Shown piece after piece: positions 23,791 through 47,018 of a DNA stretch of 64,000 bases; the first letter of the stretch is position 1; each line of letters opens with the position of its first letter. A program made the translations under genes and the position numbers. Source of the stretch: an uncultured Chloroflexia bacterium (GTDB taxonomy: Bacteria > Chloroflexota > Chloroflexia > Thermomicrobiales > UBA6265); contig CAVRUD010000008.1 of NCBI GenBank assembly GCA_963724285.1, positions 6,302-70,301 on the forward strand, read 5' to 3'. Below the pieces are notes generated by a model. The model worked only from the letters and a program-made list of their open reading frames with translations, did not search any database and was not told the DNA's origin.

Positions 23791-24565
23791 GCGCCGATCA
23801 CCCCCTGCACGATGGCCTCACGAATAGATTTGATGCTTGTTCGTATCCTACTACAGCGCACCGTCGTCAACAGCCGTACGGGCCATTGTTTGGTGGGCAA
23901 TCGCGTTTGGCGGAATGATGTCAGCGGAGCGGGGCAGGACCGCGGGCCGGGGTGCCGCCTGCCACCCGCGTCCGGCGGTCCCACCCCGCCAAATGCGATT
24001 GCCCTCGCCATGATTGCTGGGCCGGCTCGGGACGAAGAGGCAAACCCACCTTCAACTGCAACGAACGCAACCGCGAGACCGGGCGAGGCGGGTAACGCTT
24101 CAGATAACCAGCCGCCGAGGCATCCCAACTTGGGCAGTTCCGCCATCTTCTATCGCGAGTGGACAGGAAAGGCTGGGCAGTCCGCCGTCGCGACCGGGGG
24201 TACGGTAAACGCGGTGGGCTGCCAAGCTTCTGCTCAATCGTTATTCCCGCGGGGACGCTCCAGATACCTCGGTCGCTAACGCAGACCATGAGATAGAAAA
24301 CAGCATCGAGAAGTGAAGCACGATGCTTTCTCCATCAAACATACATAGTACTTTTGGCATAGTTGACTTTTATGGCAAGAGGACTACCATCGGGGAACCA
24401 GTATCTCAATAAGGAGGGTCCACGAAGCGAGCGAACGGTCGTCCCCGCCCGCTCCTCGTTTGCATGAACGTGTTAAGGAGACTCGTTGCTTGTGCTGTTC
24501 GCGCGACGGCGAGCAGGATGATGCCCGATTGTGCCCGCATGTGAGGCAGGTAAAGGAGATACCTT

Positions 24566-25355: not shown

Positions 25356-25387
25356 CGAGTGGGATCCGACGGCTGGCCTGACGCTGA

Positions 25388-28300
25388 TTGGATGAAGGCA
25401 TGACCCGCGATCGGGGGATCATCGACCGCCTCGAGGAGGCGGACGCGGACGAGTTAGCGGAGATCCTGCTCGGGGCCGGGCGCGCCGAGCAATCGGATCT
25501 GTCTGCTCACCTCGGCAAGGAACGCTTCCACCGGATGCGCTCCCTGGCGTTGCAGCGGCCGAGGTCACGATCGGCCGCGACTGCCGTTTGGGGGAACGTG
25601 GTCGTCCTGCACGGTTTCTTGGGCAGTTCGCTGACTGCCTACGACCGACCGGAGGGCGACGAGCAGATCTGGATCGATGTCCGGCGGATTGGGCTGGGGC
25701 AGCTCTCGCTGCTGCGGCTCGGGCCGGACGGTCGTTCGCCCTACCACCCGGGCACCGATATCCGCGCAAGCGGCATCATGAAACGCACCTACGGGGAGCA
25801 GCTCCTCGCCCTCGCGAAGAATTGGACGGTCCGCGCATTCCCGTTCGATTGGCGCAGGGACGTGGACTCGGCCGCGGACGAGTTGAACTCCCAGCTCAAT
25901 GACTGGTTCGCGGCCGGTGACCCTGTCCACCTGATCGCGCACGGCATGGGTGGGTTGGTCGCCAGGGCATTCATCCGCAAGTACCCGGCTCGGTGGCGAT
26001 CGATGTGGGACCATCCGGGCGCCGGGAAGCGGGGCGGGCGCCTCATCATGCTCGGGACGCCCAACCACGGGTCATTCGCGATCCCCCAGACGATCGTGGG
26101 GATCGAACCGATCGTCATCAAGCTCGCCGTTCTTGACCGGCGCAACGATCTCAACGGCCTGCTCACCATCATTAACTCCTTCGTCGGGATCTATCAGATG
26201 CTCCCGTCGCCGCTGGTGCTGCCGGCGATGGAACGTCTCTATCAGGCTGAGACCTACGGCAATCTCGGTGTGCCCCAGGTGCCCCAGGCGCACCTGTCCG
26301 CGGCTCTCCGTCACCACGAGCGACTCGCCGACGTTATCGAGCCAGACCGGATGATCAACGTTTTGGGGAACGATCAGCCCACCTTCTCGAACATCACCCG
26401 ATTCGAGGGTCTTAAAGACGTGGCATCGTACGGCGTCACCCCCATGGGTGATGGCCGCGTGACGCATCAGCTTGCCCAATTGACGGGCGTGAGCGCCTAC
26501 TTCGTCGACGACGACAGCGGCGACCTACCCTCGAATGGCAGGGTCATCGCCGCTCTCGACGACCTGCTCACGACCGGCAAGACAGGTCGGTTACGGCCTG
26601 GATCAACCACGATCCGTTCGCGCTGGGGTTCCCAGTTGGAGCGTGAGGCCCGCGAACGGCTCGTGCAAGAGGTGGGGACGCACCGAACGAAGCTGGGATC
26701 GCTCCTCGATTACTCCAGGGCGTGGCGCACGATCGTCGAGGATCGTCCCTCGACACGCCGAAGGGCCGGCGATCGTAGTGGTCCGGGGCTGGATGAACCG
26801 GACGACGCGTTCGCGGAGGAGCCGGAGATCGTCGAGGTGCTGACGCATGGGGTCCTCGCCTCTCGGGGCGGGCCCAAAGTCGATTTCGCGAACCCGCGAA
26901 GTACCTCTGAGCCGCCGACGATCGAGTTCCAAATCTTTGGAGGCAGCATCGACGAGCTGGACCTGGTCAATACCGGGCCCGTCGGACCCTCCGAGCGATC
27001 ACTCGAAGAGATCCGCCAGTTGGAAGCGCAAGGGGGAGTGCCAGAGTGCCCCATCGACGTGATCGCCGTGGGTCACTACGAGAGAACCCGGCCCGAGGGG
27101 GCCGAGCTCGTGCTCGACAGGGCCATCAGCGGCGTCGTTCCCGGCAGACCCGATGATCTACGCGGCCGGTCGTCGGATTCCAATTTGCTTCTGACGCTCT
27201 TCGCCGAGCGGGGCACCATCCGCGGTGAACTTGGCCAGGTTTTCCTGCTGCCCGATCCGCGACGCGCGTCGACGCGCGGAGCCGTAGCGCGCTGCAATCG
27301 TGATATCGCCGTTGTCGGACTGGGCGTCCCCGGCCGGTTCGGCGCTCCGGAGCTGAAGGTCCTTGCGCGTGAGCTCTGCTGGACACTAGGCAGGATGGGG
27401 AAGCGGCACCTGGCTACGGTCTTGATCGGGTCCGGTGTCGGGAATATCGATGCCGGCGAAGCGACTTCGGCATGGATCGCCGGGATCAAGAATGCGTTGA
27501 CCGGATCGACCATGGACGACGACCGAAAGCTGCGCCGGGTGACGTTCGTCGAACGCGACCCGGACAAGATCCTCGCCATGGCGGCCGCAATCGTGAACGA
27601 ACAGGAACAGTTGCGCACGCGAGATCGCATGAGAATATCCTTCGCGCAACCCCCCGCCGAACGGATGAAACGCATTCGCAGGTGGTGGACATCCACGAAG
27701 CAGCAGGAGGAGAAGGAACGAGATGAGCTCCTTTCAATGATCCATCCCAGCTGCCTCCGACCTGGCTGACGGTCACGGTCGGAAAGGAAGGGTATCGGTA
27801 CGGCGCCATCACCGATACCGCGTCGATTCCTGAGCGAGAAGTCCCCCTCAACGTGGCGCGGATTCACAAGGCTAACGACAACCTGGCGGCGGCGCCGGAT
27901 CTCGGCCTCCAACTGGAGCACGGGCTCTTCCTCAAGAAGCTGGCGCTACCGAGGGACCTGACCGGTCATCTTGCGACCGCGGCGCCGCTCGTCTTGATGC
28001 TTGACGCGGCAACGGCGCGGGTCCACTGGGAAATGATGGCGCAACCTGACCCGTTCGATCGTTCGGACGGATTCGACGTTCCGGACGATGACATGGTTGA
28101 CGGGGCTGGAGACGCCCACGCAGAGGAGACCATCGAGCGGTTCCTCGGGATCACGCGCGGAGTTACGCGCCAGTTGCGCACGGCGTTTGCTCCGCCTCCG
28201 GACCCACCCCCACCCCCGCGGCGGCGACTGCGGGTCCTGATCGTGGCCGATCCGGCCGAGGACGACCCGTTGGAAGGAGCCCAGGAAGAAGGAGCCGCGG

Positions 28301-29039
28301 TCGCCGCTCTCTTCGAACAGTTCAACGCCCTCCACGGTGCGTTCGGCGATTCCGAACCGAATGGAAACAACGTGGACCGGGGAAAAGCGAGAACCGGGTC
28401 GAGGTCGTAGGCCTTTTCGGGCCGTACGAGGCGACCTTGGACGAGGTCCTCCGGCATCTCGTCCAACGCTCGTACGACGTTCTTCACTTCGCTGGGCATT
28501 GCATCTACGACAAGAAGCGGCCGTCGGCATCTGGATGGATCTTCTCCAACGGTGAACGGCTGACCGCGAACGAACTCGACCGGATCGATCGTATCCCGAA
28601 GTTCGTCTTCTCGAACGCCTGCGAATCCGGGATCACGCCGGATCGTTCCGGGAGCCGATCGGTGGAGTTGGCTCCGAGCTTCGCGGAGGCGTTCTTCGCA
28701 CGTGGGGTTTCGAACTTCGTCTGCACCGCGTGGCCCGTGGACGACGGCGCGGCGCGCAATTTCGCCCTCACGCTCTATCGAGGCCTCCTCGGGCTCAAGC
28801 CCGTGGACGGTCAGCCGAACGCCTACGAACCGACGACGCCGTTGCACATGCACCGCGCGATGCAGCAGGCACGGCGCGCCGTCGCGGCGCAGCCGCGTGG
28901 CTACCGAACCTGGGGCGCCTACCAGCATTACGGCAGCCCGTACCTGCGGTTCTTCGAGCCATCGCCTACGGCGGAGAGGAGGCGATCGGCCAAAACGAAC
29001 CGGGATGCGATTGGCGTTTCACCGATCGCCGAGGGCTAG
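25388..29039 (+). pseudogene. ~1,210-aa LCAT/lipase-like alpha/beta-hydrolase, macro-like (M17-N-like) domain and CHAT protease; two frameshifts (near 27730 and 28380)
   Basis: 'VVVLHGFLGS', 'FPFDWRRD', 'LIAHGMGGLV'. 'IDVIAVGHYE...LDRAISG...RGELGQVFLLP...IAVVGLG'. 'TWLTVTVGKEGYRYGAI...' continues in the frame of 27853. 'ENRVEVVGLFGPYEATLDEVL...LHFAGHC...FSNACESG' is in the frame of 28437. Confidence 0.8.
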
Positions 29040-29073
29040 GGCCTGTTTGCACAGCGCGGAGCGGCGGCGGAAA

Positions 29074-29192
29074 CCCGGGGTTGATGGAGGTTGCGGAATT
29101 GATCGGTGGTTTTTAGGGGGCGGTGAACGGATGGGAAACGGCGGCGCTCCAAGAAACCCGCGATCAATTCCGCAACCTCCATGAACCCCGGG
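29074..29192. repeat. 32-bp inverted repeat (31/32) with a 55-bp spacer
   Basis: 'cccggggttgatggaggttgcggaattgatcg' and 'cgatcaattccgcaacctccatgaaccccggg'. The spacer contains 'gggaaacggcggcgc', related to the outer repeat family. Confidence 0.85.
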
Positions 29193-29383
29193 CTGAGCAT
29201 GACGAAGCCCTTCCCGGGCTGAGCACGCTGGGAGGGACCGTGCCCACCGGCAACATCGCCTGTCCAAACCGCCCTAGTGCGGTCGATAGGGACGCCACGG
29301 TCGGACGCACCGACCGCGAGCGATGACTGATCTTGGCCTGTCCCGAACCATACTGTCGCGAATGACCAGGAAAGGGCGGTTCA

Positions 29384-30211
29384 ATGGCTGAGCAAACTCC
29401 AGGAACAACCGTTATCGATCCATCTGGGAACTACGGGCCGACCGAGCACGGTGACATCCATCCGGACGAAGGGTCGCGGCGGATGCTCACGAGCGCCGTC
29501 TGGGGGAACGTCCCCATGTTCGTCTCCTCCGAGAACGGCATGGACGTTACCCCATGGAATCCGGACTGCTCCTGGTACCAGTACGGGACGCACTACTGCC
29601 TGAACGGCTGCCAGCACCCGGGGATGGACATCAGCATGGTGGAGGGCACCGCGCTCTTCGCGGCGGCCGGTGGACAGGTGGTTTTCTCCGGGAATGATGG
29701 ATTCTACGCGCCGCTCCACGTCAACATCCTCGCGGCGAACGGCGAGGTCCACATCTACGGCCACCTGTCGAGCATCGACCCGAACGTCTTTGCCGGCGCC
29801 CACGTGCAGGCCGGCCAGTTCCTCGGCGGATCGGGCTCGATGAACGGCGGTCACCTCCACTTCGAGCGGCGCGTGCCGAACGGCAACTGCGGCTCCGGGT
29901 TCAGCGCCGACGATCCCACCTCCGTCCTGACCGACGCCCCCCAAGCCGGGGACCAGCCGGTACCCCAGGCCGGCTTTGCGGCAGGCGATCGCATCAACGT
30001 CGTCGACCCACCGCTGCGCTTCCGGGACGGGCCTGGAACAGGGAGCAACGTCATCGAGGAGCTCCCGCTCGGCACAGAGCTCTGCGTGGTGGGCGGACCC
30101 CAGCAGGCCGACGGGTACGACTGGTACCAGGTCTCCCGTCCCGAGAGCGGGGCGCAGGGCTGGGTGGCGGGGAGCTTCTGCGGCCTCGTCGCGGCGCAGG
30201 GCTGCCAATAA
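29384..30211 (+). CDS. M23 (LytM-type) metallopeptidase with C-terminal SH3b-like domain; no signal peptide seen
   Basis: 'HPGMDI' (HxxxD), 'GHLHFE' (HxH), C-terminal 'VVDPPLRFRDGPGTGSNVIEELPLGTELCVVGGP...YDWYQV'. Confidence 0.85.
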   Translation: MAEQTPGTTVIDPSGNYGPTEHGDIHPDEGSRRMLTSAVWGNVPMFVSSENGMDVTPWNPDCSWYQYGTHYCLNGCQHPGMDISMVEGTALFAAAGGQVVFSGNDGFYAPLHVNILAANGEVHIYGHLSSIDPNVFAGAHVQAGQFLGGSGSMNGGHLHFERRVPNGNCGSGFSADDPTSVLTDAPQAGDQPVPQAGFAAGDRINVVDPPLRFRDGPGTGSNVIEELPLGTELCVVGGPQQADGYDWYQVSRPESGAQGWVAGSFCGLVAAQGCQ

Positions 30212-30490: not shown

Positions 30491-30535
30491 GGCAGCAATC
30501 GTCTACCCATTTAAGAGGGGAACAGGGGGCACTTC

Positions 30536-32321
30536 ATGATTTCGCGTCTGCTCTCCGCCGTGGCAACGGCGGTCGACCACCGCATCGGCTGGCATCGGCT
30601 GCCGACGCCGCTCGGCCTGCTCGCGTTGATGGGCATCCGGGGTAGGCTGCGAGAACGCAATCTGGTCGACACGGCTTCGGCAACCCAACGCCAGCAACCC
30701 GAGCCCGCCCCTTGGCCCGGCCACCGAACCACGCGCGCGCCGGACGGAACGTTCAACGATCTCGGGCAGCCGCGCATGGGCGCCGCGGGCACCCGGTTTG
30801 GCCGCAACGTTCCCCTCAGAGAAACGTCCCCGGATCGCGCCCGGATGCTCCAACCCAACCCGCGTACCGTGAGCCGCGAGTTGCTGACCCGGGACGAGTT
30901 CGTCCCGGCCACGACGCTGAACGTGCTCGCCGCGTCCTGGCTCCAGTTCATGATCCGCGACTGGTTCAGCCACGGGAAGAGCCCAAAGGAGAACCCCTGG
31001 GAGATCCCGCTCGCGCCAGACGACCCCTGGCCAGAGCGGCCGATGCGGGTCATGCGGACCCGGCCCGATCCGACCCGCAGCCCCGAGGAGGACGCGGCGG
31101 GCCTGCCGCCCACCTACGTCAACGTCGAGACCCACTGGTGGGACGGGTCACAGCTCTACGGCAGCGACGCCGAGACCCAGGCCCGGGTCCGCACCGGGAG
31201 CGGCGGCACGCTGAAGATCGGCGCCGACGGGCTGATCCCGGTCGACCCGCGGAGCGAGAAACATCCGGCAGACGAGCCCGGCTTCTGGGTCGGGCATCGC
31301 GATGATGCACACCCTGTTCACCCGCGAACACAACGCCATCTGCGACCGTCTCCGCGCCGAATACCCGACCTGGACGGACGACGAACTCTTCGAGCACGCG
31401 CGCCTCGTCAATGCCGCGCTGCTGGCCAAGATCCACACCGTTGAATGGACGACGGCGATCCTCGGGCACCCTGCCCTTCAGATCGGGATGCGCGCGAACT
31501 GGTGGGGCCTGGCCGGGGAGCGCATCAACCGGCTCGTCGGGCGCCTCAGCGACAGCGAAGCGATCAGCGGCATCGTCGGCGGGCCAACCCACCACTTCGA
31601 CGTCCCGTACTCGTTGACCGAGGAATTCGTCGCGGTCTACCGGATGCATCCCCTCATCCCCGACGACTACACCTTCCGTTCGTCGGCCACGGACGATCTG
31701 CTGCAAAACCGGCAGTTTGCCGAGATCTCCGGTCGGAAGGCCCTGGAGCTTATCGGCGCCGTCCCGATGGCAGACCTCTTCTATTCCTTTGGCATCGCCC
31801 ATCCAGGCGCGGTGACGCTCCACAACTTCCCACGCGGTTTGCAGTTCCTGGAGCGGGAGGACGGCATCGTCCAGGATCTGGCGGCCGTCGACATCCTGCG
31901 CAGCCGCGAGCTCGGCGTGCCGCGCTACAACCGATTCCGCCGGCTGTTGCACCTCACGCCGATCGAAAGCTTCGACGAGTTGACCGACAACCCGCGCTGG
32001 CGGGAGGAACTGCGCCGCGTCTACGACAACGACGTCGAGCTGCTCGACCTGACGGTCGGAATGTTCGCCGAGCGAGTGCCGAAGGGGTTCGGTTTCAGTG
32101 ACACCGCCTTCCGGATCTTCGTCCTGATGGCCTCGCGCCGGCTCAACAGCGACCGCTTCTTCACGACGGATTTCACCGCCGACGTCTATACCCAGGTGGG
32201 ATTGGACTGGATCGCCAACAACGACATGTCGACCGTCTTGAGGCGGCACTACCCTGGGTTGGCCCCGGCCCTGCGCGGTGTCCGTAACGCGTTCGCGCCG
32301 TGGACACGGGTGACGGCCTAA
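30536..32321 (+). pseudogene. haem peroxidase-superfamily enzyme (cyclooxygenase / alpha-dioxygenase-like), frameshift near 31295
   Basis: 'LAASWLQFMIRDWFSHG', then 'GFWVG' | 'IAMMHTLFTREHNAICDRL' across two frames. 'TEEFVAVYRMHPLIPD', 'DLAAVDILRSRELGVPRYNRFRR'. Confidence 0.85.
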
Positions 32322-34940: not shown

Positions 34941-35202
34941 CTAGTCCGCGGTGATATCGACCCCGTGCTTCTTCGCCGCCCGTTTGATCCGGTTCTTGAT
35001 CGTCGTCGACCTCGTCCTTGTCGTACTTGGCGGCGTTGTCCTTGTGGTTGATGTAGCTCCAGGCCGCGCGGATGTGCTCCGGCGTGTCGATCGGGTACTT
35101 CTTGTTGGTCGGATCGGCGAACGTCACGTCGCCGTACTCGCGCTCGCCCTCCGTCGGGTTCACGTCGTCCCGGCGCTCGATGTAGGTCGATTCAGACGCC
35201 AT
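34941..35202 (-). pseudogene. small conserved protein (DUF6582-like, from memory), frameshift near 35000
   Basis: 'YGDVTFADPTNKKYPIDTPEHIRAAWSYINHKDNAAKYDKDEVD', then in another frame 'IKNRIKRAAKKHGVDITAD*'. Confidence 0.65.
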
Positions 35203-35487
35203 GTGGCACCTCCTTGCGTGCACAGGCGGGATGTACGTCCCGCCCTCACCGCTGGTTGTTGCAAGGATGATGCCGAAGCCAACCACACCAGGCCATGGTG
35301 AATCTCAAGAACTAAAATCTCGAAGGTTCCAATTAGGTTGTTCAGGAAGGGCCACTATTCGTTCAGGGTCGCGGGAATAGTCACAAGAGACAAGACGTAT
35401 TCCGCCAAGGGAACAAGAGAACCGCAAAGGATGGCGATCGCCGAGGGATCTGACCCGCCTTCCTGCCAGCATGACGATGACAGCGGG

Positions 35488-38274
35488 TCAAGAGGACGAG
35501 TAGGAGGCACTTGGCGCCGCCTCGTCTGCCCAGGCGAGCGCTTCGGCCAGAGCGACCTCTTCGGGGAGACCTCGACCGATCGCCCACGCCTCCGCGAAGG
35601 CCGCCTCCCCGAGTCGCTCGCGCAATTCGTTCTGAAACAGGTCGTAGTCCTCGCGTTGCTCGATCGCAACCGGCTCGCCGATGGCCTCGCGGATGGCGGT
35701 GGCCGCGGCCAACCATCGGGCCGCCGCGCCCGGATCCCCCGCCCGGCTCGCCAGCTGCCCCAGCCCTTCCAGCCCGAAGGCGACGCCAGACCGGTCCCCC
35801 AGGTCCCGGAACGCGACCAGCGCCTCCGCGAACAGACCCACGCCCCGCCCGTCCTCCCCCCGATCCCGGGCGACGCAGCCCAGGTTGTTCAACGCGACCG
35901 CCGTGTTTTCCGGGTCGCCCGCGCCGCGGAAGAGTCCCAGGGCCTCCTCGAAGCGGGCGGCGGCAAGCGGGAGATCCCGTTCGGTGAGGGCCATGCTTCC
36001 CAGCATGTTGAGGCAGACGCCCGCGCCGACCGCGTCGCCGGCGGCCCGCTTCAGTGCCAGTCCCTCCTCCACCAACTCGACCGCTCGCGCGCGGTCACCT
36101 CGTGCGTACGTCGCGTCGCCGAGGACGTTGAGGATCGATCCGACCTGCGGGCCGTCGCCCGCGGCGCGCGCCAGCAGCAACGCCTCATCGAGGACCTCCG
36201 CCGCGCCGTCGGCATCCCCGAGGAACTGGCGCACCACCCCGAACGTGTAGAGGGCCCGCGCCGTGGTCCGCTGGTCGCCGGCCTCCCGCGCCGCCGCGAC
36301 GGCCGCCTCGGCGTGCACGGCCGCGACGCGGTGGTCGCCCTGGGCGCGGGCCAGCATCGCCGCCCCCGTGCGCGCCGCCGCCACGCCACCGGCCGGTGCG
36401 CCGGTGCTGACGGCGAGCGCACGGTCGAGCCAGCGGCGACCCTCGGCGAAGTGGCCCCGGGTGTACCAGAACTGGCTGAGGTTGGTCGCGAGCCGCAGCG
36501 CCGTCTCGTCCCCGTCCCGGTCGACGGCCCAGCCGAGCGCCGCGCGGAGGTTGTCGTGGTCGGACTCCAAACGGTCGAGCCAGACGTGCAGCTCGTCGCC
36601 GTAGCGGCGCCGCGGGACGTCGCCGCCGGACAGCTCCAGGAAGAACCGGGCGTGGCGCCCCCGGATCGCCTCGCCCTCGCCGCTGGCCGCCAGCCGCTCG
36701 GCGGCGTACTCCCGGATCGTCTCCAGCATCGCGAAGCGGGGCTCGCCCTCGGTCCGCTCCTGCCGCAGCAGGCTCTGCCGGACCAGCGCCGCCAGCGCCT
36801 CGTAGGGGTCAACCTCCCCATCCCCGGCGGCCACCGCCTCGACCGCCTCGAACGAGCACCCCCCGGCGAAGACGGCCAGGCGGCGGAAGGCGACCTGCTC
36901 CGCCGGCGCCAGCAGGTCGTGGGACCAGGCGATCGCCCCCCGCAGGGTCCGCTGCCGCTCGGGCAGGTCGCGCGCCCCGCCGGTCAGCACGGGGAGGCGC
37001 TGCTCCAGGCGGCGCAGCAGCGCCTCCGGCGGGAAGAGTTTCGCTCGCGCCGCCGCCAGCTCGATCGCCAGCGGCAGCCCGTCCAGGCGCCGCGCGATCC
37101 CGGCGAGCGTTCCGGCGTTGGCCTCCGTCAACGCGACGTCCGCCCCGGCCGCCCGCGCCCGCGCCAGGAAGAGCGCCACGGCCGGCGCGGCGGCGACCTG
37201 CTCGGCCGTCCCGGCGGCGGGGGGTACCGGCAGCGGGCCGACGGCGACCTCCTCCTCGGCCCGCACCCCCAGCGGCGCCCGGCTCGTGGCGAGCACCGCC
37301 AGGTCCGGGGCGGACGCCAGCAGGCCGGCGAGCTCCCCGGCGGCGCCGAGGACCTGCTCCAGGTTGTCCAGGACCAGCAGCAGCCGGCGCGGGCGCAGGT
37401 ACGCCTGCAGCTCCTCGGCCAGGGGCCGATCGCCCCCCTCCCGCACGCCGAGCGCGGTGGCCACGGCCGGCAGCACCAGCGCCGGGTCGGTCACCGGCGC
37501 CAGGTCGACGAACACCGCGCCGTGCGGGAAGTCCCCGGCCGCCGCTCGGGCCGCCTCCAGCGCCAGGCGCGTCTTGCCCGCGCCGCCCGGGCCCGTGAGC
37601 GTCAGCAGCCGCGCGCCGCCCGCCAGGCGGCGCGCGATGTCGGCGAGCTCGGCCTCCCGGCCGAGGAGGGCGGTCGGCGGGACGGGCAGGTCGGCCCGGG
37701 CGGAGCCGGTCACATCGGCCGTCGCGTGCGGGGTCCCCCGCCCCGGGATGGCGCCGACGCGGTCCAGCGCCCGCAGCGCCGCCGGCAGCCATTCCCTCTC
37801 CGGGCGGTCGAGGACGTCGATCCACTGCGCCCCCTCCAGCCAGTAGGCCAGGGCGTCCGGGAACGCGACCGCTTCCAGGCGCAGCGGCAGGACGGGGCGG
37901 CCGAAGCGCCAGGCGAGGGCGATCTCCTGACGCACGTTGCGTGAGGCCAGCGAGGTGGCCGAGCACAGCAGCACCAGCGCGCCGCACCCCCGGATCCCGT
38001 CGACGATCTCCGGCCCGTAGCTCTGCCCGCCGGCGATGCCGGCGACGTCGATCCAGGCGGGCACCCCGGCGCCCTCCAGCGCCCGCGTCACGGCCAAGGC
38101 GTGCGGCCGGTCGGCGCTGGCGTAGCTCACGAAGACGTGGGGAGGCGGGTCGGCGCCCAAGGAGGGTTCGTCGGCTGCGATGGGGTCTGGCGGCAGCGGC
38201 TCGGACACGGCTGCGTCCTTTGGCGGCGACAGAATGCGTGCTGCCATTTTGTGGAACCCAATCGTCCCCGTCAA
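35488..38274 (-). CDS. TIR-domain / STAND (NB-ARC-like) NTPase / TPR-repeat protein, apparently intact
   Basis: TIR 'HVFVSYASADR...LLCSATSLASRNVRQEIALAW'. Walker A 'GPGGAGKTRLA', Walker B 'LLLVLDNLEQ'. Long C-terminal TPR array ('NLGCVARDRGE..', 'NMLGSMALTE..', 'NVLGDATYARGD..'). Confidence 0.9.
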   Translation of the reverse strand: MTGTIGFHKMAARILSPPKDAAVSEPLPPDPIAADEPSLGADPPPHVFVSYASADRPHALAVTRALEGAGVPAWIDVAGIAGGQSYGPEIVDGIRGCGALVLLCSATSLASRNVRQEIALAWRFGRPVLPLRLEAVAFPDALAYWLEGAQWIDVLDRPEREWLPAALRALDRVGAIPGRGTPHATADVTGSARADLPVPPTALLGREAELADIARRLAGGARLLTLTGPGGAGKTRLALEAARAAAGDFPHGAVFVDLAPVTDPALVLPAVATALGVREGGDRPLAEELQAYLRPRRLLLVLDNLEQVLGAAGELAGLLASAPDLAVLATSRAPLGVRAEEEVAVGPLPVPPAAGTAEQVAAAPAVALFLARARAAGADVALTEANAGTLAGIARRLDGLPLAIELAAARAKLFPPEALLRRLEQRLPVLTGGARDLPERQRTLRGAIAWSHDLLAPAEQVAFRRLAVFAGGCSFEAVEAVAAGDGEVDPYEALAALVRQSLLRQERTEGEPRFAMLETIREYAAERLAASGEGEAIRGRHARFFLELSGGDVPRRRYGDELHVWLDRLESDHDNLRAALGWAVDRDGDETALRLATNLSQFWYTRGHFAEGRRWLDRALAVSTGAPAGGVAAARTGAAMLARAQGDHRVAAVHAEAAVAAAREAGDQRTTARALYTFGVVRQFLGDADGAAEVLDEALLLARAAGDGPQVGSILNVLGDATYARGDRARAVELVEEGLALKRAAGDAVGAGVCLNMLGSMALTERDLPLAAARFEEALGLFRGAGDPENTAVALNNLGCVARDRGEDGRGVGLFAEALVAFRDLGDRSGVAFGLEGLGQLASRAGDPGAAARWLAAATAIREAIGEPVAIEQREDYDLFQNELRERLGEAAFAEAWAIGRGLPEEVALAEALAWADEAAPSASYSSS

Positions 38275-38646
38275 CCTGTGGCCGATGATCGACCTACGAC
38301 ACGCGCCGCAACGACTTAATACACAGCGCGGGCTGGGAAGTGATTCCCGGCCCGCGTTGATTGCGTCAGTTCGCGCCGCCTAGAGGTTGTCGCCTCCACC
38401 CCCGCGACATTGTTAGAGACTCCGTTGTTGATCGCCCCGTCCGTGTTGTTGAAGTATGCGAGGTCCACCTCGATCATGCTGCCGATGACAAGCACAAAGC
38501 GGGTGTTGTCCAGCGTCGCGTTGCCCCGCACCGTCGCGAAGCTGAGCACAGCGCCCTCCGCCGTTCTGGTGAACGCATCTGTATCGACCGCGCGATATGA
38601 TAGGATCGCGTACTGTCCGTACACCCCGAGCCGCGAGGTTAATGCT

Positions 38647-38886
38647 GTGTCGGTAACCCCCAAGAAATCAGACGTGATTGACGGAATTACCATAAAGTAC
38701 CATGCCAATGGAAAGACGGTTTGGTCAAAAGGCAAGGTAGTTGACGGTCAGGCGGAGGGATACTGGGAATGGTATCGCCTGGATGGGACGCGCAAACGCT
38801 CAGGAACGTTCAACAAAGGAGTCCCAGTAGGACGGTGGACAACGTATGATGCACACGGTGAGGTCTATAAGGTGACCGAAAAGTAA
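38647..38886 (+). CDS. short MORN-repeat (YwqK-like) protein or fragment
   Basis: 'ITIKYHANGKTVWSKGKVVDGQAEGYWEWYRLDGTRKRSGTFNKGVPVGRWTTYDAHGEVYKV'. Start uncertain (GTG at 38647 or 38674). Lies in a lower-G+C patch. Confidence 0.5.
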   Translation: MSVTPKKSDVIDGITIKYHANGKTVWSKGKVVDGQAEGYWEWYRLDGTRKRSGTFNKGVPVGRWTTYDAHGEVYKVTEK

Positions 38887-39001
38887 CCTCCATAGCAGGC
38901 GTCGCCTTACGAGCACTGGCAACCGGTGTTCCTGTTGTTCCCGACGATTCAAACCAGCTTCGTTGATACCCTACCGTCCACTCAGAAGTCTGGGAACCGG
39001 C

Positions 39002-39048
39002 GCGGACCGGGGAGCGCCCCCGGTCCGCTTCGTTGCGATTTGTTGTTG
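39002..39048 (+). terminator. intrinsic-terminator-like hairpin with T-rich tail
   Basis: 'gcggaccgggg-agcgc-ccccggtccgc' followed by 'ttcgttgcgatttgttgtt'. Confidence 0.45.
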
Positions 39049-39120
39049 GCGTTGTGCCTACGGGAACTCGCTAGCCCCCCACGCACGGTATCGGCGTGAT
39101 TCGGCGGCGCGACGCGGCAT

Positions 39121-39768
39121 CTAGAGCGACAGGATCACCAGCACCGCGTCCAGGCCTTCCGCCCGGGTGGCGCGGAGGTCGGTGAACGCCTCGTCGATCT
39201 GCTGCGGGTCGTAGAGCACGGTGGTGGCCGGCGATGTGCCCAGCCGACGCACGAACGCGTCGTACTGCGTCCAGCCTGAGGCGGTATTTGCCGCGACGAC
39301 GACGTAGCGGGTGTCGTCGTTGGCCGTGCGGGTACCTGGGGACGGGACCGGGAGGGACGGGGCGGGCGCGTCCAGATCGCGGCAGGCGGCAGGCGGCGAC
39401 CCGGCGTCGCGGGTTCGCGCCGGGCGGTCGGGCGCGATCGTTGCGCTCGCCGCGGCGTACTCGGCGGCCAGGACCTCGGCCTCGGCGTAGGCGGCGGCGT
39501 CCCAGTCGGCCGGCTTCAAGTCCCAGCCCTGGCTGACGACCTCGTCTATGGGGACGGTGAGGTGGATCTCGCGGTCGCCGACCGCCGCGATCGCGCTGGT
39601 CGGGGCGTAGTAGTCGGTCGTGACGAAGAAGCCCTTCTCGACCGTGATGTAGGCGGGGCCCACCTCGGTGACCTTGCCGACCTTGTCGCCGTCGGCGCCG
39701 TAGACGGTCATCCCCCCGCGGATCTGCCGGTGGCAGGCCGTGGTGTCCATGGTAGTTGTGGTGTCCAT
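39121..39768 (-). CDS. DUF2171/PRC-barrel-like protein with unknown C-terminal domain
   Basis: 'IRGGMTVYGADGDKVGKVTEVGPAYITVEKGFFVTTDYYAPTSAIAAVGDREIHLTVPIDEVVSQGWD'. Start at ATG 39768 inside the 510-aa composite ORF. Confidence 0.7.
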   Translation of the reverse strand: MDTTTTMDTTACHRQIRGGMTVYGADGDKVGKVTEVGPAYITVEKGFFVTTDYYAPTSAIAAVGDREIHLTVPIDEVVSQGWDLKPADWDAAAYAEAEVLAAEYAAASATIAPDRPARTRDAGSPPAACRDLDAPAPSLPVPSPGTRTANDDTRYVVVAANTASGWTQYDAFVRRLGTSPATTVLYDPQQIDEAFTDLRATRAEGLDAVLVILSL

Positions 39769-39950
39769 CGGTCTGTCTCGTGCTTTCTCTGGATGCGGTA
39801 AACGAACCGCGTCGTGGCGTCCCGGCCTCCCGGAGGCCGAGGAGCTGGATGAACAGGGAAGCGATGGCGGGGCCGGCGACGCGAGACGAGCGGATGCGCG
39901 CCAGCAGCTGGCCACGCGACACGATCGCCGTCTCGGTCGGCGGCGTCGGG

Positions 39951-40653
39951 CTAGGTCGCGGGGCCGTCGTCCTCGTCGGGCCGCTCGGCCGGGTCCTGGC
40001 CGTCCGCGCCGCCCCCCGTGGGCCGGAGGCGCGAGCGCTCGACGAACGCCTCGAGGTCGGCGCGCGCGAACCGGTAGGCGGCGGGGCCGCCGGGGGCGGC
40101 GTCCCTGACCGCCGGGAACGCCCCGCGGTTGGCCCACCTGAGCACGGTCCCCCGGGTCACCCCGAGGATGCACGCGGCCTCGGCGGAGTCGACGTACCGG
40201 TCGCCCCGCGCGGGCGCCAGGGCGAGGACGTCCGAGCGGCGGAAGCGGTAGCGGACGACGCGGCCGACGTCCGCGCGGACGTGCGGGACGCGGCCCCGGG
40301 CCGCCCGCCGGCGCAAGGCGAGCGCGGAGATGCCGAGGATGGCCGCCGCCTCGGCGGTGCCGATCAGGTCGTCGTCCGCGGCGGGGTCCGGGCCGCCGCC
40401 GCGCGGCGGGGACCCGGCCCCCCGGCTCGCGGTCCCAGCCCCGGGCGACGGCCGCGTCCTGGGTCACGCCCAGGCGGACCTCGCCCCCGCCGACGGCGGC
40501 GACCGCGCTGATGGGGACGTGGAGGTCGGCGGGCAGGAAGGCGCCCTTCGCGACGATGACGTACCGGCCGTCGAAGCCGACGACCGTGCCGACCGTGGCG
40601 CCGTCCGCCCCGCGGACGGTCATGCCGGTCTGGATCTGATGCTGGATGTCCAA
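39951..40653 (-). pseudogene. DUF2171/PRC-barrel domain followed by two excisionase-type HTH domains; frame change at a C6 run (40418-40423)
   Basis: 'IQTGMTVRGADGATVGTVVGFDGRYVIVAKG...RLGVTQDAAVARGWD'. Then in another frame 'LIGTAEAAAILGISALALRRRAARGRVPH...YVDSAEAACILGVTRGTVLRWANRGAFP'. The first frame has no stop before 39121. Confidence 0.6.
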
Positions 40654-40877
40654 TGTCCGTTCCTCTTATAGGTGCTACGTGTGGTCGGCGGTCTGCGTCG
40701 CGCGTGTAAGGCGCGGCCTATGCGCCGGCCGCGACGACACGGCAACGGCCCCGAGCCGAAGCCCGGGGCCGCCACCGATCCGCGGATCGCGGAACCCCTT
40801 ATTTGCAGCCGTTGGCGGTCGGCCTTCCAGGTCTGGAGCCACTGCCCGTAGCCCGGTTCTTCACCGTCCACCTGCAC

Positions 40878-41069
40878 CTAAGCCACTTGCACCGGTCCGA
40901 ACCCGCCGTGGTCGCGGTCGCCGCCGTCGCTGTTGCGCGTGGCGCGCTCGATCCCCATGCAGTTGGCGTTCTCCGAGGGCTGGCCGGCGCTCGTATCGGC
41001 GCTCGCCGCACCCACGGCCGACGCCGCCACCAGTCCGGCGACACCGAACGCCATCATTAGCCGTTTCAT
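40878..41069 (-). CDS. small secreted protein (weak call); ends at a TAG that is followed in frame by more protein-like sequence
   Basis: Signal 'MKRLMMAFGVAGLVAASAVGAASA'. '...DRDHGGFGPVQVA*VQVDGEEPGYGQWLQTWK'. Confidence 0.4.
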   Translation of the reverse strand: MKRLMMAFGVAGLVAASAVGAASADTSAGQPSENANCMGIERATRNSDGGDRDHGGFGPVQVA

Positions 41070-41222
41070 CCGCGTTTCTCTTTCCTGCCCACCGGGCCCT
41101 ACGCATCCCGGCGACCGGACCACCCAGTCGCCCACCGATGTCGTGTCTCCATCATCGGGGAAGGACGGCGGGGGCGCAGCCACAACGGTGACGCCGCGGC
41201 GTCACTCGTGGGCGCCGGACTG

Positions 41223-41936
41223 TCACCGGTGTGACACGGCCCCCGCCCAGGTGTGGCCGTGGAGGCCCTCGGCGTCGAGGATCGCGATGCCGGGCGACGC
41301 CGTGGCGACCAGGCCCAGCGCGCGGAGCTCGGCCACGACCCGCGCGACCGCCGGGCGGGCGGAGCCGACCGCCTCGGCCAGCGCCTGCTGCGTGACCACC
41401 GCGACGAGGCGTCCGTCGCGCTGCGCGGTCGCGAGGTCGAGGAGGTGGCGCGCCACCCGCTGGCGCAGGGACCCGAAGCCGGTATCGGCGACCGCGTCGA
41501 TGGTGTCGTACAGCCGCCGCGCGGTCTCCCGTGCCAGCATCCACCCCACCGCGGGCTCCGTCTGGCCCAGGGAGGCGAGCGTCCGGGCGCCGAGCATGAG
41601 GAGCCGGGCGTCGGTGACCATCTGGGCGCTGACGGGGGCCGGCCCGCCGACGACGGTCGCGGCGCCAAGGAGTTCGCCGGCGCGGCCGTAGGCGACGGTC
41701 AGGGTGCGACCATCGGGGGCCGATAAGACGAGGCGGACCAGCCCGGCGACGACGAGCAGGCAGCGCGGGTCGTCCTCGTCGCGGTAGATCGTGCTCCCGG
41801 CCGGCACGTCGACGAGGAGGGCGTCGGCCAGCACCCGCTGGCGCAGCGGCGGCGGGAGCCCGGCGAGCGCGCTCGCGGCGACGGCGCGCGCCGCCGGGCC
41901 GTCGGCGGCAACAAACGAAGCATCGGCGCCGGTCAT
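41223..41936 (-). CDS. Crp/Fnr-family transcriptional regulator
   Basis: cNMP-binding-like 'VPAGSTIYRDEDDPRCLLVVAGLVRLVLSAPDGRTLTV'. C-terminal HTH 'TQQALAEAVGSARPAVARVVAELRALGLV'. Start at 'MTGADAS'. Confidence 0.85.
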   Translation of the reverse strand: MTGADASFVAADGPAARAVAASALAGLPPPLRQRVLADALLVDVPAGSTIYRDEDDPRCLLVVAGLVRLVLSAPDGRTLTVAYGRAGELLGAATVVGGPAPVSAQMVTDARLLMLGARTLASLGQTEPAVGWMLARETARRLYDTIDAVADTGFGSLRQRVARHLLDLATAQRDGRLVAVVTQQALAEAVGSARPAVARVVAELRALGLVATASPGIAILDAEGLHGHTWAGAVSHR

Positions 41937-42471
41937 GCTGTCCTCCGGGTCGAGCGCGGGAACGCGACGGGGTGCGCCGCACAGCGTACAGGACGCCGAC
42001 CCCGCCGCTCCGCCGGTGATCATCGCCGGGCGGCTCGTTGACGGGGTCATAACGGGGACGAGCCACCGGCCCCGGGATCGATGGCCGCGCCACCGGACGT
42101 GCCAGCACCCAGGAACGGAGCGCGGCGCCTCCACCGGCGGCAACGTAGGCGATGGGTCACGATGCGGCTCTAGGTGCCGGAGCACGACGCACAGGATCTG
42201 GTCGACGCATGGCCCGCGCTGCTCCATCGTCAGGTTCCCGCGGACTCAACATGTTGCACACCCCACGACCACCGATCGCTCGCACGCGAGACAACGATCG
42301 ATTTCCCGGACGATGAACGAGCAGGCGGCTCCTTCGACGATGGGCTGATCGGCGCTATTCCTGGCGCGGATCTTACCCAGGTTCACCCGTATACTCCTCC
42401 CGGTCGCGCCACCGGGCGTGCCAACATCCAGGAGCGGAGGGCGGCGCCGGTGTTGGCCGCGCGGAGGTGCG

Positions 42472-43188
42472 ATGCGGTTGCGGGTGCTGGAGCAAGGGGT
42501 TATCGAGGCGAAGGACGCCGGCTTCGTCACGGAGCACGGCGAGCGCGAGCTGGTCAACGCCACCTGGCCCGTGCGCTGCTACCTGATCGAGCACCCCCGC
42601 GGGCTGCTGCTCTGGGATGCCGGTCTCCCCGAGGGGTCGCCAGACAACCCACCACCAACGGGGAAATTCCCCAGGGGCATCCTCGCGCCCCTGGTTCCGT
42701 GGCTGGCTGAACTCGGGCTCGCCCCGGCCGACATCACCTTCATGGGCTTCTCTCACCTGCATAACGACCACGCCGGCAACGCCAACCACTTCGCCGCCTC
42801 GACCGTGGTCGTCGCCGCCCGCGAGTGGTCCCACGCCTTCGGGCCGGACGCCGGCAGCGTCTACCGCCCCCAGGACTACGCCGCCCTGCGCGACAGCCGC
42901 ACGATCCTGGTCGACGAGACCCACGACCTCTTCGGCGACGGCACCGCCGTCATCCACGCCGCCCCGGGCCACACCCCCGGCCATCAGATCCTCCTCCTGA
43001 CCATCCCGGGCCAGGAACCCCTCCTCCTGGTCGGGGACGCCTTCTACGCGCCCGAGGACCGGATCCACCGCCGCGTCCCCGCGTGGAACGTCGATACGGC
43101 CCAATCCTTCCGCTCCATCGACCGCATCGAGCAGCTCGCCGCGGAGACCGGCGCCCGCCTTTTGGTCCACCACGACCCGAACGCCTAG
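42472..43188 (+). CDS. MBL-fold hydrolase (N-acyl-homoserine-lactonase-like)
   Basis: 'CYLIEHPRGLLLWDAG', 'FSHLHNDHAGN', 'HAAPGHTPGH', 'LVGDAFY', 'HHDP'. Confidence 0.85.
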   Translation: MRLRVLEQGVIEAKDAGFVTEHGERELVNATWPVRCYLIEHPRGLLLWDAGLPEGSPDNPPPTGKFPRGILAPLVPWLAELGLAPADITFMGFSHLHNDHAGNANHFAASTVVVAAREWSHAFGPDAGSVYRPQDYAALRDSRTILVDETHDLFGDGTAVIHAAPGHTPGHQILLLTIPGQEPLLLVGDAFYAPEDRIHRRVPAWNVDTAQSFRSIDRIEQLAAETGARLLVHHDPNA

Positions 43189-43299
43189 GCAGTTTCACAG
43201 AAGGCTTGGACCGGTGCGCGCGGCGGTGGGGGCGGAGGTGGGGCGCTGGTCCCCGCCCTTGCCCCGTACGCCGACGAACCCCGGGACCTGTTCGCGACG

Positions 43300-43950: not shown

Positions 43951-44022
43951 GCGATCCGTCGGCTACCGCCGCGATCCGTCGGCTACCGCCGCGATCCGGC
44001 GGCTACCGCCGCGATCCGTCGC
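43951..44022. repeat. 20-bp tandem repeat, about 3.6 copies
   Basis: 'gcgatccgtcggctaccgcc' x3 (one g/t variant) plus a partial unit. Overlaps the stop region of the SDR pseudogene. Confidence 0.9.
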
Positions 44023-45472
44023 AACATCCCGGCGAAGATGAGCCGGTGAATGGGATACGTGACGTACCAATACGCGAGACCGCCGAGGCCCACCGGGTCG
44101 AAGATCGCCGTCTGCCTTATCGTCGACCCGGCGCCGTCCGGCGCGATTTCGAATTCCAGCCAGGCGCGCCCGGGCACCTTCATTTCCGCGAACAGGCGCA
44201 GGCGCCGGTTCGGCTCGATCGCCTCGACCCGCCACCAATCGACCGCGTCGTCCACCCGAAGCCCCACGGGATCGCGTCGCCCGCGCCGCATCCCGACCCC
44301 GCCGACGAGCAAATCGAGGAATCCGCGCAGACGCCAGAGCCAGGTGGCGTAGTACCAGCCCGCTTCGGCCGCCGATGCGCGCGATCGGCGCAAACGCGTC
44401 GGCGGGCGCGACCGGAACCGTCACCGTCCGCGAATCGACCAGACGACTCCCGAACCGGACCCCGCCCCAGTCACGGCGCTCGCCGTTCGCCGAGAACGCA
44501 TCGGACCAGCGGGTGACGGCATATTCCCGGTCCTCGTTCGCAATCGCCTGCGCCATCGCCTCGTCCACGCCGCGCGGAGTAATGGGGAACGCGTGTCGCG
44601 CGGACTCGTCACGCACCACGGTGGGAACCGTGATGCTGTCGATCAGCTTCCGTCCGACGCGGGCGTACAGCGGCGTGACCAGCCGAGCCAGAGACTGGAA
44701 AGCCGGGGGGTCAACACCGGGACGGGAATCATCAGCCGCCGCAGCCCGCGTTGGCGCGCATACGCCCGCATGAGATCGCCAAACGAGACGCGATCGGCGC
44801 CGCCGATTTCGTACATCGCGGCTCCCTCCGACGGAGGTCCACCGCGGCTACCAGGTACGCCAGCAGGTCGGCGATCCCAATCGGTTGCGTCTTCACGGCG
44901 ACCCACCGGGGCGTGATCATCACGGGCAGGCGCTCGACCAGGGCGCGGATCATCTCGAACGACAGACTGCCCGAGCCAAGGACGACCGACGCCCGGAACT
45001 CGATCACCTCGACGCCCGAAGCGCGCAACAGGTCGCCGACCTCCTGCCGGCTGCGCAGGTGCGGTGAGGCGGCGCTACCGGCATCACCCAGCCCGCCCAG
45101 GTAGATGATGCGCCGGACGCCGGCGGCGCGCGCGGCGGCTCCGAAATGGCGCGCGGCCGCGCGGTCGTGCTCTTCGAACCCCTCCGCCAGTCCCATGCTG
45201 TGGACGAGGTAGTAGGCGATATCGCCGCCCGCCATCGCCCCCGAGAGGCTCGCGGGGTCCGACACGTCGGCGAACGCGACCTCGGTGCTCGGCCCGACAC
45301 GAGAGCGCAGCGCCTCGGGCCGCCGCGTCAGGCAGCGCACGCGCTGCCCCGCCGCTTCCAATTGCGTCAGCAACCGGCCACCGACGTACCCGGTCGCCCC
45401 GGTCAGGAGGATCAACGGTGGGGCGGAGGCCGCCCCCGGCGGGTCGACCGGCGGGCCGGTGTGGGTCATCAT
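43983..45472 (-). pseudogene. NAD(P)H-binding SDR-family / DUF2867 protein broken by about 3 frameshifts (near 44835, 44685, 44360)
   Basis: 'ILLTGATGYVGGRL' ... 'MYEIGGADRVSFGDLMRAYARQRGLRRLMIPVP' ... 'LVTPLYARVGRKLIDS...' ... 'GWYYATWLWRLRGFLDLLVGGVGMRRGRR...AWLEFEI' across four ORF-track frames. Confidence 0.75.
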
Positions 45473-45661
45473 CGGGTCCCTCCGCGACCGTGCGCGGCCG
45501 CCAAGATGGCGCGGCCGCTGGTGTGTGGGCGAGTCCTTGATCGTGCCGGTGCCCCCCGAGCCCATTGGTCAGACCGTCCTTCCCCTGCGCCACGTCGGAG
45601 GAGAGCGGGGTACAGTGACGCAGCGGACGTGCCACGCGTCGCCGCCAGAGGGAGGATGTCG

Positions 45662-46454
45662 ATGGACCGGGACGCATCGATGGGGGCGGCGGGCCCGCTC
45701 CGGGTCCGGGACACCGGGGCGGGGCCGCCGCTGCTCCTGCTGCACGGGGTGCTGGTCAGCGGGGGGCGTTCGACCTCCTGACGCCCCGGCTCGCGGGCCG
45801 CTTCCGGGTGCTGGCCCCGACCTGCGCGGGCACGGCCGCGGCGCTACGCTGCCCGGCCCCCTCGACGCCGCGGCGGTCGCCTCCGACCTCGCGCCGGCCC
45901 TGGACGCCCTCGGCCTGGGCCGCGTCCATGTCCTGGGGCATTCGCACGGCGGGGCGACGGCGCAGGCCTTCGCCCGCGCCCACCCGGAGCGGGTGCGGTC
46001 CCTGGTCCTGGTGGGGACCTAGGCCGTGCACCGCCTGACCCTCCGGGAGCGGCTGCTGGGACTGGCGGCGCCACTGATCGTCGCGGCCGCCGGAACCGAC
46101 CGCCTGGCGCGGCTGGCGCGGCCGGGCGGCGGGGGTCGGAAGCTGGGGCCCGAGGCGGCCGAGGCGCTCGCCGCGGCGGTGGCGTCGAACGACGCCGGGC
46201 GGATGGCGGAGGCCTTGCGGCCGGTGCGGCCCTTCGACAGCCGGGGGTGGTTGGGGGAGCTGCGGGCGCCGGCCCTCGTGGTGGCCGGGGACTCGGACCT
46301 CGTCGTCTCCCCGGGCCAGGCGCCGCTGCTCGCGTCTGGGATCCCCGACGCCCGGCTGCGCCTCGTGTCCGGCGGGGGACACCAGCTGCCACTCTCGCAC
46401 CCGGAGGAGCTGGCGCGGCTGGTCGACGAGTGGCTGGCCCCGGATCCGCCCTAG
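45662..46454 (+). pseudogene. alpha/beta-hydrolase with two frameshifts (G6 run 45761-45766; near 45812) and an in-frame TAG (46020-46022)
   Basis: 'PPLLLLHGVLVSGG | AFDLLTPRLAGRFRVLAP | DLRGHGRG...VLGHSHGGATAQ...LVLVGT*AVHRLT...GGGHQLPLSHPEE'. Confidence 0.75.
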
Positions 46455-46704: not shown

Positions 46705-46925
46705 GGGACCGGATCGCCTCGTGGCTGACCCCAAACGTTGCCGCCGGCTCACGCAGCGACCGCGCCGCGGCGAGTGATCAGATTGTCTCGCAGACTTGGA
46801 ACGTCAGGCGGCGCCCCCGATCAACCTGCTCTGCCGCTCGTCCTGAGGCCCCAACCGCGCGGCACTCCGGCGCCTCGGCGACCACCACCCAGGCGTGGTC
46901 GTGACGCAACCGCGCGAGCGACTTG
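46705..46925. repeat. copy 2 of the dispersed homologous segment (longer form)
   Basis: Aligns by eye with 52003-52222 over ~220 bp and with 43558-43683 over its right half. The minus strand encodes a 'FGVSHEAIRSLLRR'-type HTH remnant. Confidence 0.75.
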
Positions 46926-47018
46926 GGAGGCCTATATTGGCCTCGAGGCGATTTCAGACTTCGGACGTCGCGTCGAGTGATTGCGCTGCAGCCGAACCTA
47001 GGCGATGCTACCCGTGCT

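Follow-up and report, generated by a model that had tools for sequence, protein, structure and literature searches.

A gene on the minus strand of contig CAVRUD010000008.1, at positions 35488–38274 of the 64-kb stretch analyzed here (hereafter the window; positions are counted from its first letter), is real and intact and encodes a bacterial switch protein resembling nucleotide-binding leucine-rich-repeat receptors (NLRs). We lean, with somewhat better than even confidence, toward reading it as a single-polypeptide NLR-like switch of a Chloroflexota (Thermomicrobiales-like) bacterium, in which ligand binding would trigger a TIR domain to cleave nicotinamide adenine dinucleotide (NAD+), with NAD+ depletion as the output. 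Proteins of the TIR-STAND-TPR type correspond in bacteria to the TIR-NLR immune receptors of plants, and the AfsR/AP-ATPase-type clade is abundant in Chloroflexota and Actinobacteria. The gene is a clean, full-length candidate for asking three questions: Is the protein an NADase? What ligand does its TPR array bind? And does it serve phage defense or physiological signaling?

Domain architecture and the predicted NAD+ pocket

How secure is the reading frame? It begins at a TTG codon and, as the initial annotation had reported, is uninterrupted over 928 amino acids, with no internal stop. Its length by itself is weak evidence, because the 36- to 38-kb stretch is 78% GC and an antisense shadow frame of 868 amino acids lies at 35338–37944. 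The minus strand is nevertheless the coding strand by codon-position GC content (0.92 at third positions, GC3, and 0.56 at second positions, GC2) and also by homology, the protein having at least 7,976 database matches. The true start is probably the GTG at 38208, which gives a protein of 906 amino acids: an AAGGA motif lies 7 nt upstream, the closest ortholog (P0006) has its called start at the corresponding codon, and residues 1–41 are disordered in the AlphaFold2 model (predicted local distance difference test, pLDDT, below 50). The features of the gene are as follows.

35488–38274, minus strand: whole open reading frame, TIR-NOD-TPR protein (NOD, nucleotide-binding oligomerization domain), from the reading-frame list, Pfam, and codon-position GC; stop codon at 35488–35490
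38206–38208, minus strand: probable true start, GTG (V23)
37759–38136, minus strand: TIR domain, amino acids 47–172, from Pfam TIR_2, TIR-profile matches, and an alternating beta/alpha fold in the AlphaFold2 model
38047–38049, minus strand: D76 in the WID motif, predicted NAD-pocket residue
37924–37926, minus strand: E117 in RQEIALAW, predicted catalytic glutamate
36628–37659, minus strand: STAND NTPase module, amino acids 206–549 (nucleotide-binding domain, helical domain, winged helix), from AAA_22/NB-ARC, the AfsR profile match, and Foldseek
37570–37593, minus strand: Walker A motif GPGGAGKT, amino acids 228–235
37357–37383, minus strand: Walker B motif LLLVLDNLE, amino acids 298–306
37279–37287, minus strand: sensor-1 TSR, amino acids 330–332
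37066–37080, minus strand: GLPLA, amino acids 399–403, of the ARC-type helical domain
36523–36564, minus strand: conserved junction motif SDHDNLRAALGWAV, amino acids 571–584, found family-wide
35518–36600, minus strand: C-terminal TPR-type helical array, amino acids 559–919, 19 helices, from TPR_12, the AlphaFold2 model, and matches to the TPRs of LGN/Pins and AfsR

The initial annotation had read the protein as a TIR domain, a P-loop STAND NTPase, and a TPR array, and each module scores above its Pfam cutoff: TIR_2 (PF13676) over amino acids 47–157 (E=1.9e-20; 74 bits, cutoff 28), AAA_22 over amino acids 220–308 (34.2 bits, cutoff 27), and TPR_12 in four stretches (72 bits, cutoff 30.1). The motifs it quoted—FVSYASAD, which is the TIR betaA motif, RQEIALAW, GPGGAGKT, and LLLVLDNLE—all lie where it had placed them. 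Many homologs carry PF00931 (NB-ARC). The Pfam ThsB_TIR family falls below threshold (18 bits, cutoff 21.2), and Pfam returned no helix-turn-helix (HTH) family in the protein at E<=0.1. As NCBIfam family assignments, HaaT, AfsR, and FimS were rejected, being partial TPR matches far below their cutoffs.

Conservation was assessed in a family alignment (A1) of the query and 52 TIR-bearing homologs (53 sequences). Invariant residues comprise W74, D76, and E117 in the TIR domain and G228–T235, D303, E306, T330, S331, R332, and GLPLA 399–403 in the NTPase, spanning Walker A, Walker B, sensor 1, and the helical domain. In the AlphaFold2 model (mean pLDDT 88.7; predicted template modeling score 0.76), a beta/alpha domain like that of TIR proteins is followed by the NOD, which includes helical and winged-helix parts, and by the 19 TPR-type helices, mostly with pLDDT above 90. 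Foldseek comparison of the model with the Protein Data Bank (PDB) recovered the archaeal STAND-TPR protein PH0952 (3e-12), the plant TIR-NLR RPP1 (1.8e-11, spanning TIR and NB-ARC over ~554 columns), and Apaf-1, CED-4, and NRC proteins. At the sequence level, profiles were required for TIR or NTPase matches in the PDB; a single-sequence search with the whole protein returned TPR matches only, and the TIR domain alone was marginal (E 0.14 or worse). The family profile matches AfsR (PDB 8k60, 8jke) at E=1e-37 across NOD and TPR, and also matches the Roq1 TIR. By sequence, then, the NTPase is an NB-ARC/AfsR-type STAND of the AP-ATPase clade with its motifs complete, and the TPR array is presumed to be the ligand sensor.

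Is the TIR domain equipped to act on NAD+? A TIR-only profile (alignment A2) searched against the PDB matches proven NAD-cleaving TIRs, with CRISPR-associated TIR 1 (Cat1) best at 1.3e-10, followed by AbTIR, SARM1, and SPARTA TIR-APAZ. The NAD pocket of Cat1 is lined by S7, H8, N9, N10, D33, S68, and E74, and the substitutions N10A, D33A, S68A, and E74A each abolish its toxicity in vivo (PMC12162218). The profile aligns with Cat1 ungapped between positions 4 and 84, pairing E117 with Cat1 E74, D76 with D33, S111 with S68, and S50 with S7; within the family, conservation of S50, D76, and S111 is complete or reaches at least 90%. Cat1 H8, N9, and N10 are not conserved, the query having Y51, A52, and S53 instead. 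The TIR domain is therefore likely equipped for NAD+ cleavage, with a largely kept pocket whose predicted signature is S50/D76/S111/E117. The initial annotation was also right about the conserved glutamate, because E117, invariant in the 53 sequences, aligns with a pocket residue that Cat1 needs for function.

How might such a protein work? By analogy with Apaf-1, plant TIR-NLRs (TNLs), Avs proteins, and Cat1, a ligand-triggered NADase mechanism is likely. At rest the protein would be a closed, ADP-bound monomer. Autoinhibition would be lifted when the TPR array binds a specific ligand, which is probably a protein or peptide; nucleotide exchange would then open the NOD and drive oligomerization, bringing TIR domains together into composite active sites that would cleave NAD+. 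The expected output is direct NAD+ depletion, which would arrest growth or kill the cell as part of a response to conflict or stress or as abortive infection. Direct depletion is likelier than Thoeris-like signaling to a partner because no partner gene is conserved nearby. A role in anti-phage defense is plausible.

Sensor mosaicism and selection

The best full-length protein match is 63% identical, and synteny is confined to one close relative, the locus L001 from a metagenome-assembled genome of an uncultured Chloroflexia bacterium, blocks of which match window positions 34945–43189 at 86–95% DNA identity. The gene is thus not a syntenic core gene. Five single-base indels lie within the first 1.7 kb of the TIR-STAND ortholog in L001 (10001–12913), and the TPR part of that ortholog lies in three frames. 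When the five indels are removed, a stop-free protein with all invariant motifs results, so the indels are either very recent or long-read assembly errors; the contig naming, the sole basis for this point, suggests that the L001 assembly is a long-read one.

Do the syntenic orthologs share the same sensor? As far as amino acid ~580, DNA identity to L001 is 78–97% (mostly 86–97%), and past that point it falls within about 30 nt to 0.46–0.63. Over gene nucleotides 1801–2700 identity is 0.54, compared with 0.50 ± 0.01 for codon-shuffled controls. The breakpoint lies at window position ~36535, immediately 3' of the junction motif SDHDNLRAALGWAV, and past it the apparent synonymous divergence (dS) rises to 0.79. 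By this comparison the TPR segment is non-orthologous to that of L001 and not merely a faster-evolving version of it, i.e., the sensor module appears to have been exchanged. The closest relative of the window TPR array is that of P0001/L081 (56% amino acid and 66% nucleotide identity over 763 nt), followed by P0002 (44%), whereas the L001 array is only 35–45% identical, in pieces. The N-terminus ranks the other way, with L001 at 77% (indels uncorrected), P0001 at ~70%, and L002 at 69%. Averaged over the family, the modules are 60% (TIR), 56% (NOD), and 33% (TPR) identical to those of the query. Judged from these identities, the predicted TPR sensor is a fast, exchangeable module, as in NLRs.

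We advance only tentatively the broader idea that Chloroflexota NLR-like receptors diversify by exchange of whole TPR cassettes at SDHDNLRAALGWAV, such that syntenic orthologs may come to carry the same TIR-NTPase engine with unrelated sensors, and that the output head may also be swapped among TIR, cyclase, HTH, and kinase domains. If true, this would amount to a combinatorial, recombination-driven receptor repertoire whose chassis is that of AfsR-type regulators, and the NAD chemistry of the TIR might here serve signaling other than defense. The sharp engine/sensor mosaicism relative to a syntenic ortholog is a concrete example of sensor exchange and the only finding here that is mildly unusual.

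We estimated the ratio of nonsynonymous to synonymous divergence (dN/dS) by the Nei-Gojobori method against the repaired L001 copy and its neighbors.

TIR, amino acids 40–180: dN/dS 0.28, dS 0.30
NTPase, amino acids 206–560: dN/dS 0.34, dS 0.26
DUF6582 neighbor: dN/dS 0.14, dS 0.36
Metallo-beta-lactamase (MBL)-fold neighbor: dN/dS 0.20, dS 0.43
Crp-like neighbor: dN/dS 0.56, dS 0.04 (very few changes lie behind this value)

These values support purifying selection on the TIR and NTPase modules, and they are better evidence for it than the intact reading frame.

Divergence from L001 is uneven along the syntenic blocks. The Crp-like regulator, a cyclic nucleotide-binding protein (window 41226–42245, minus strand; L001 6914–8331), is 95% identical with a dS of 0.04, compared with 0.27–0.43 for the genes flanking it, which suggests recent recombination between the window and L001 lineages. 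A segment of ~670 bp at window positions 39883–40682 (minus strand) is not in syntenic L001; it holds a reading frame with two HTH_17 (excisionase/MerR-like) domains (39954–40463) and an extra DUF2171 copy, and looks like a small insertion or remnant. Two further STAND-TPR paralogs in L001 (1851–4112 and 19186–21322), one of them TIR-bearing (P0013), are missing at the corresponding window positions, so paralog content varies between close relatives. Several genomes are multi-copy, with three copies within 22 kb in L001 and two in the window. In a spacer of locally lower GC, a reading frame of MORN-repeat variants with a YwqK-like C-terminus and a tentatively placed start and N-terminal half (38410–38886, plus strand) runs divergently to the TIR-STAND gene; its last 78 amino acids are 94% identical in L001, and a 139-amino-acid minus-strand frame overlaps it.

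Genomic context, neighborhood damage, and rival explanations

Does the genomic context point to defense? The initial annotation had presented the protein as a known anti-phage sensor, a role that is not established for this clade: our literature search found no experimentally characterized TIR member of the AfsR/AP-ATPase-type clade. We sought 17 window neighbors in 80 related loci and found no conserved operon partner in the 79 loci other than the single syntenic relative. Pfam scans of the window reading frames revealed no SIR2, SLOG, or Macro neighbor beside the gene. Signs of a mobile element were also sought: the 64-kb window holds no tRNA genes, plasmids yielded no full-length relative, the matches being PknK-type kinase-NOD-TPR proteins without a TIR, and phages gave negligible matches only. 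Named homologs are Chloroflexota/Thermomicrobiales proteins annotated "TIR domain-containing protein" or "predicted ATPase." As for individual homologs, P0001 adjoins PIN/MazE toxin-antitoxin pairs and a transposase, while P0002 is surrounded by transporter and housekeeping genes and has a LuxR-type STAND paralog at a distance of 9 kb.

Several observations weigh against a defensive NADase switch. The PADLOC search called for by the initial annotation was run (PADLOC-DB v2.0.0, of 2023, which does not cover Avs7–21) and assigned no defense family to the protein, giving only weak domain-level TIR and TPR matches with no Avs/AVAST model among them at E<=0.1; on ten neighbors it found no defense system near the gene. 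Around 10 TIR-bearing loci, the 56 neighboring reading frames, a small sample, are mostly housekeeping genes (histidine biosynthesis, Mg-chelatase, RF-1, UvrA), among which the PADLOC matches (mad3, mad8, phospholipase, PtuB) are single and unrepeated. The nearest characterized relatives of the chassis are regulators, namely AfsR (transcriptional) and PknK-type kinases (signaling). Among the best 120 of the at least 7,976 matches, TIR_2 occurs in ~54, a class-3 adenylate cyclase in at least 32, an XRE HTH in 12, a SARP in 3, and a kinase in 1, so that TIR heads are about as frequent as the cyclase, XRE-HTH, SARP, and kinase heads together. Three of these 120 proteins (P0016, P0035, and P0056) combine an N-terminal TIR_2 with a C-terminal LuxR/GerE HTH on one NOD-TPR protein, an unusual pairing that hints that some family members put the TIR to regulatory use. 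Within the protein itself, Pfam NB-ARC scores 21.4 bits, slightly below its 23.5 cutoff, and Walker B lacks the second acidic residue that many STANDs possess, having N304 in its place.

Much of this evidence would fit a physiological signal-transduction regulator, the main rival explanation, which we regard as possible but rather unlikely. Here the AfsR/PknK/cyclase-type chassis would sense an endogenous metabolite or protein, and the TIR would make an ADP-ribose-derived messenger or a local change in NAD+ that controls development, stress, or secondary metabolism, playing the role of the adenylate cyclase heads of sister proteins. Besides the AfsR profile match, the PknK-type plasmid matches, the alternative and TIR-LuxR heads, and the housekeeping contexts, it is favored by the presence in the same window of a LuxR-type paralog and the Crp-like regulator. 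AfsR-type proteins are, moreover, among the non-immune STANDs in a 2026 survey of 589 STAND clades, in which defense and non-defense clades are interspersed (PMC13581612). However, a receptor gene for the TIR product is not conserved nearby, and the wholesale TPR swap and the presence or absence of paralogs between close relatives are more typical of conflict genes. All characterized bacterial TIR enzymes, furthermore, act in defense.

In a second alternative, which we consider improbable, the TIR would be a non-catalytic scaffold for TIR-TIR interactions, as in animal TLR adaptors, recruiting a protein upon oligomerization and leaving NAD+ uncleaved. Some TIR domains are indeed adaptors only, and the TLR1 and TLR6 TIRs are among the weaker profile matches. 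Yet the catalytic glutamate is retained together with three more NAD-pocket positions, all of them fully or at least 90% conserved; the best profile matches are all enzymes; and no candidate TIR partner protein is encoded nearby.

What does the intactness of the gene mean? The initial annotation had set it against a decaying neighborhood and taken the contrast as a sign of ongoing selection. Six genes between 24.5 and 49.7 kb are indeed broken, by at least 9 frameshifts and 1 in-frame TAG, as judged from Pfam scans, three-frame reading, and comparison with L001.

24554–25352: caspase-like Peptidase_C14 gene, one frame change near 24700
30515–31441 (profile 2–213) and 31236–32318 (profile 222–522), plus strand: animal-type heme peroxidase in two frames, switching beside a GGG run at ~31290
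34945–35202, minus strand: downstream DUF6582 gene, truncated by 1 nt inserted at 35005 in comparison with L001, where the gene is intact
43986–45568, minus strand: NAD(P)-binding and DUF2867 gene, three frame changes
~45650–46451, plus strand: divergent alpha/beta-hydrolase, two frame changes and an in-frame TAG at 46020–46022
46905–49642, plus strand: second STAND paralog, HTH_17-NB-ARC/AAA_22-TPR with a C-terminal LuxR (GerE), in two frames split near 48611–48641, probably by a 1-nt deletion around GAGGCGAACC; it passes Pfam NB-ARC at 26.8 bits

Decay is not general, however: most of the ~45 Pfam-supported reading frames in the window are intact, including a histidine kinase, BrkB, MoeA, methyltransferases, multicopper oxidases, two metallo-beta-lactamase-fold proteins, GNAT, the Crp-like regulator, trypsin-vWA, trypsin-WD40, and an M23 peptidase. 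Most of the breaks are isolated single-base indels with a strong coding signal on either side, in genes otherwise well preserved, and some could be assembly errors. To attribute all of them to long-read assembly error would leave the in-frame TAG of the hydrolase and the two genes with three lesions each unexplained; at least part of the decay thus appears to be real, and the cluster of heavy damage at 43986–46451 is the best evidence for this.

At 10 lesions per 25 kb (0.4 per kb), a 2.8-kb gene would go undamaged with probability exp(-1.1), or ~0.33, so intactness alone is no evidence of selection. The pattern is, moreover, reversed in L001, where the Crp-like, MBL, MORN, and DUF6582 neighbors are intact. 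The inference of ongoing selection stands instead on the dN/dS values and the invariant catalytic residues. That the frame is intact by chance in a gene that is dispensable or being lost, like its broken neighbors and the L001 ortholog, is very unlikely despite this escape probability and the at least 5 single-base indels of that ortholog, given dN/dS values of 0.28–0.34, no stops even in the repaired L001 copy, catalytic motifs all intact, a GC3 of 0.92, and L001 indels that may be assembly errors, their removal restoring the invariant motifs exactly.

Elsewhere in the window, a lower-GC stretch within 17365–30208 (62–65% at 24–30 kb) holds the caspase-like gene, a 793-amino-acid LCAT/lipase-like reading frame (25388–27766), and an M23-SH3 peptidase. 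Just upstream of it lie the trypsin-vWA (19775–22369) and trypsin-SpaA-WD40 (17365–19956) proteins. These genes resemble protease/vWA conflict-system components described in multicellular bacteria, with PADLOC matches at the domain level only.

Comparison with known systems

How does the protein compare with systems already described? Kaur et al. (2020 eLife, PMC7159879, citing Leipe et al. 2004) already describe fusions of TIR, AP-ATPase, and TPR in actinobacteria, cyanobacteria, and related multicellular bacteria as a component of conflict systems. This family of bacterial TIR-AP-ATPase(NB-ARC)-TPR proteins, known from Actinobacteria, Cyanobacteria, and Chloroflexi, is the one to which the query belongs: the query has the same three modules, comes from the same phyla, and likewise has expanded, clustered paralogs; nothing essential is different. 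AfsR, the Streptomyces SARP regulator, shares a homologous NOD and TPR chassis over ~600 residues, but it is a transcription activator with an N-terminal SARP/BTAD DNA-binding head, whereas the query has a TIR head and no HTH was found in it. The SARP/LAL regulators more generally (AfsR, MalT, and the LuxR family) have a DNA-binding domain; none was found in the query, although its paralog at 46905–49642 has HTH_17 and GerE.

Among immune proteins, the plant TIR-NLRs (RPP1, 7dfv/7crc; Roq1, 7jlv) share the order of TIR then NB-ARC, the fold, and the catalytic glutamate, and a similar oligomerization-dependent NADase logic would be expected. They differ in sensing through leucine-rich repeats and a C-JID where the query has TPRs; identity is only ~16–17%, and the query has no EDS1-type downstream pathway. 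The Avs/AVAST STANDs (Gao et al. 2022; Lee et al. 2026, PMC13581612) share the single-gene layout of effector, STAND, and TPR-like array with a variable sensor, but the query has no PADLOC Avs match, its NTPase is of AP-ATPase/AfsR type, and no defense island was found around the gene or its homologs. In agreement with the depletion output favored here, the literature regards TIRs that stand alone or are fused to Avs as likely to act by depleting NAD+ (bioRxiv 10.64898/2025.12.03.692087). Cat1 (PDB 9mud), the best match at the TIR level, has the pocket residues S, D, S, and E in common with the query; it is activated by cyclic tetra-adenylate (cA4) on its CARF domain and forms filaments, whereas activation of the query would come from its STAND NTPase. 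Thoeris pairs a ThsB TIR with a ThsA-type effector, while the query lies below the ThsB_TIR cutoff and lacks a conserved neighbor in the 79 other loci.

Overall, the gene belongs to the very large, already described TIR-AP-ATPase-TPR family, of which it is a good but ordinary example and no new kind of system. On these comparisons it falls outside Avs (as far as the PADLOC models used can tell), Thoeris, and the SARP/LAL regulators, and is predicted to work like a TIR-NLR with a TPR sensor.

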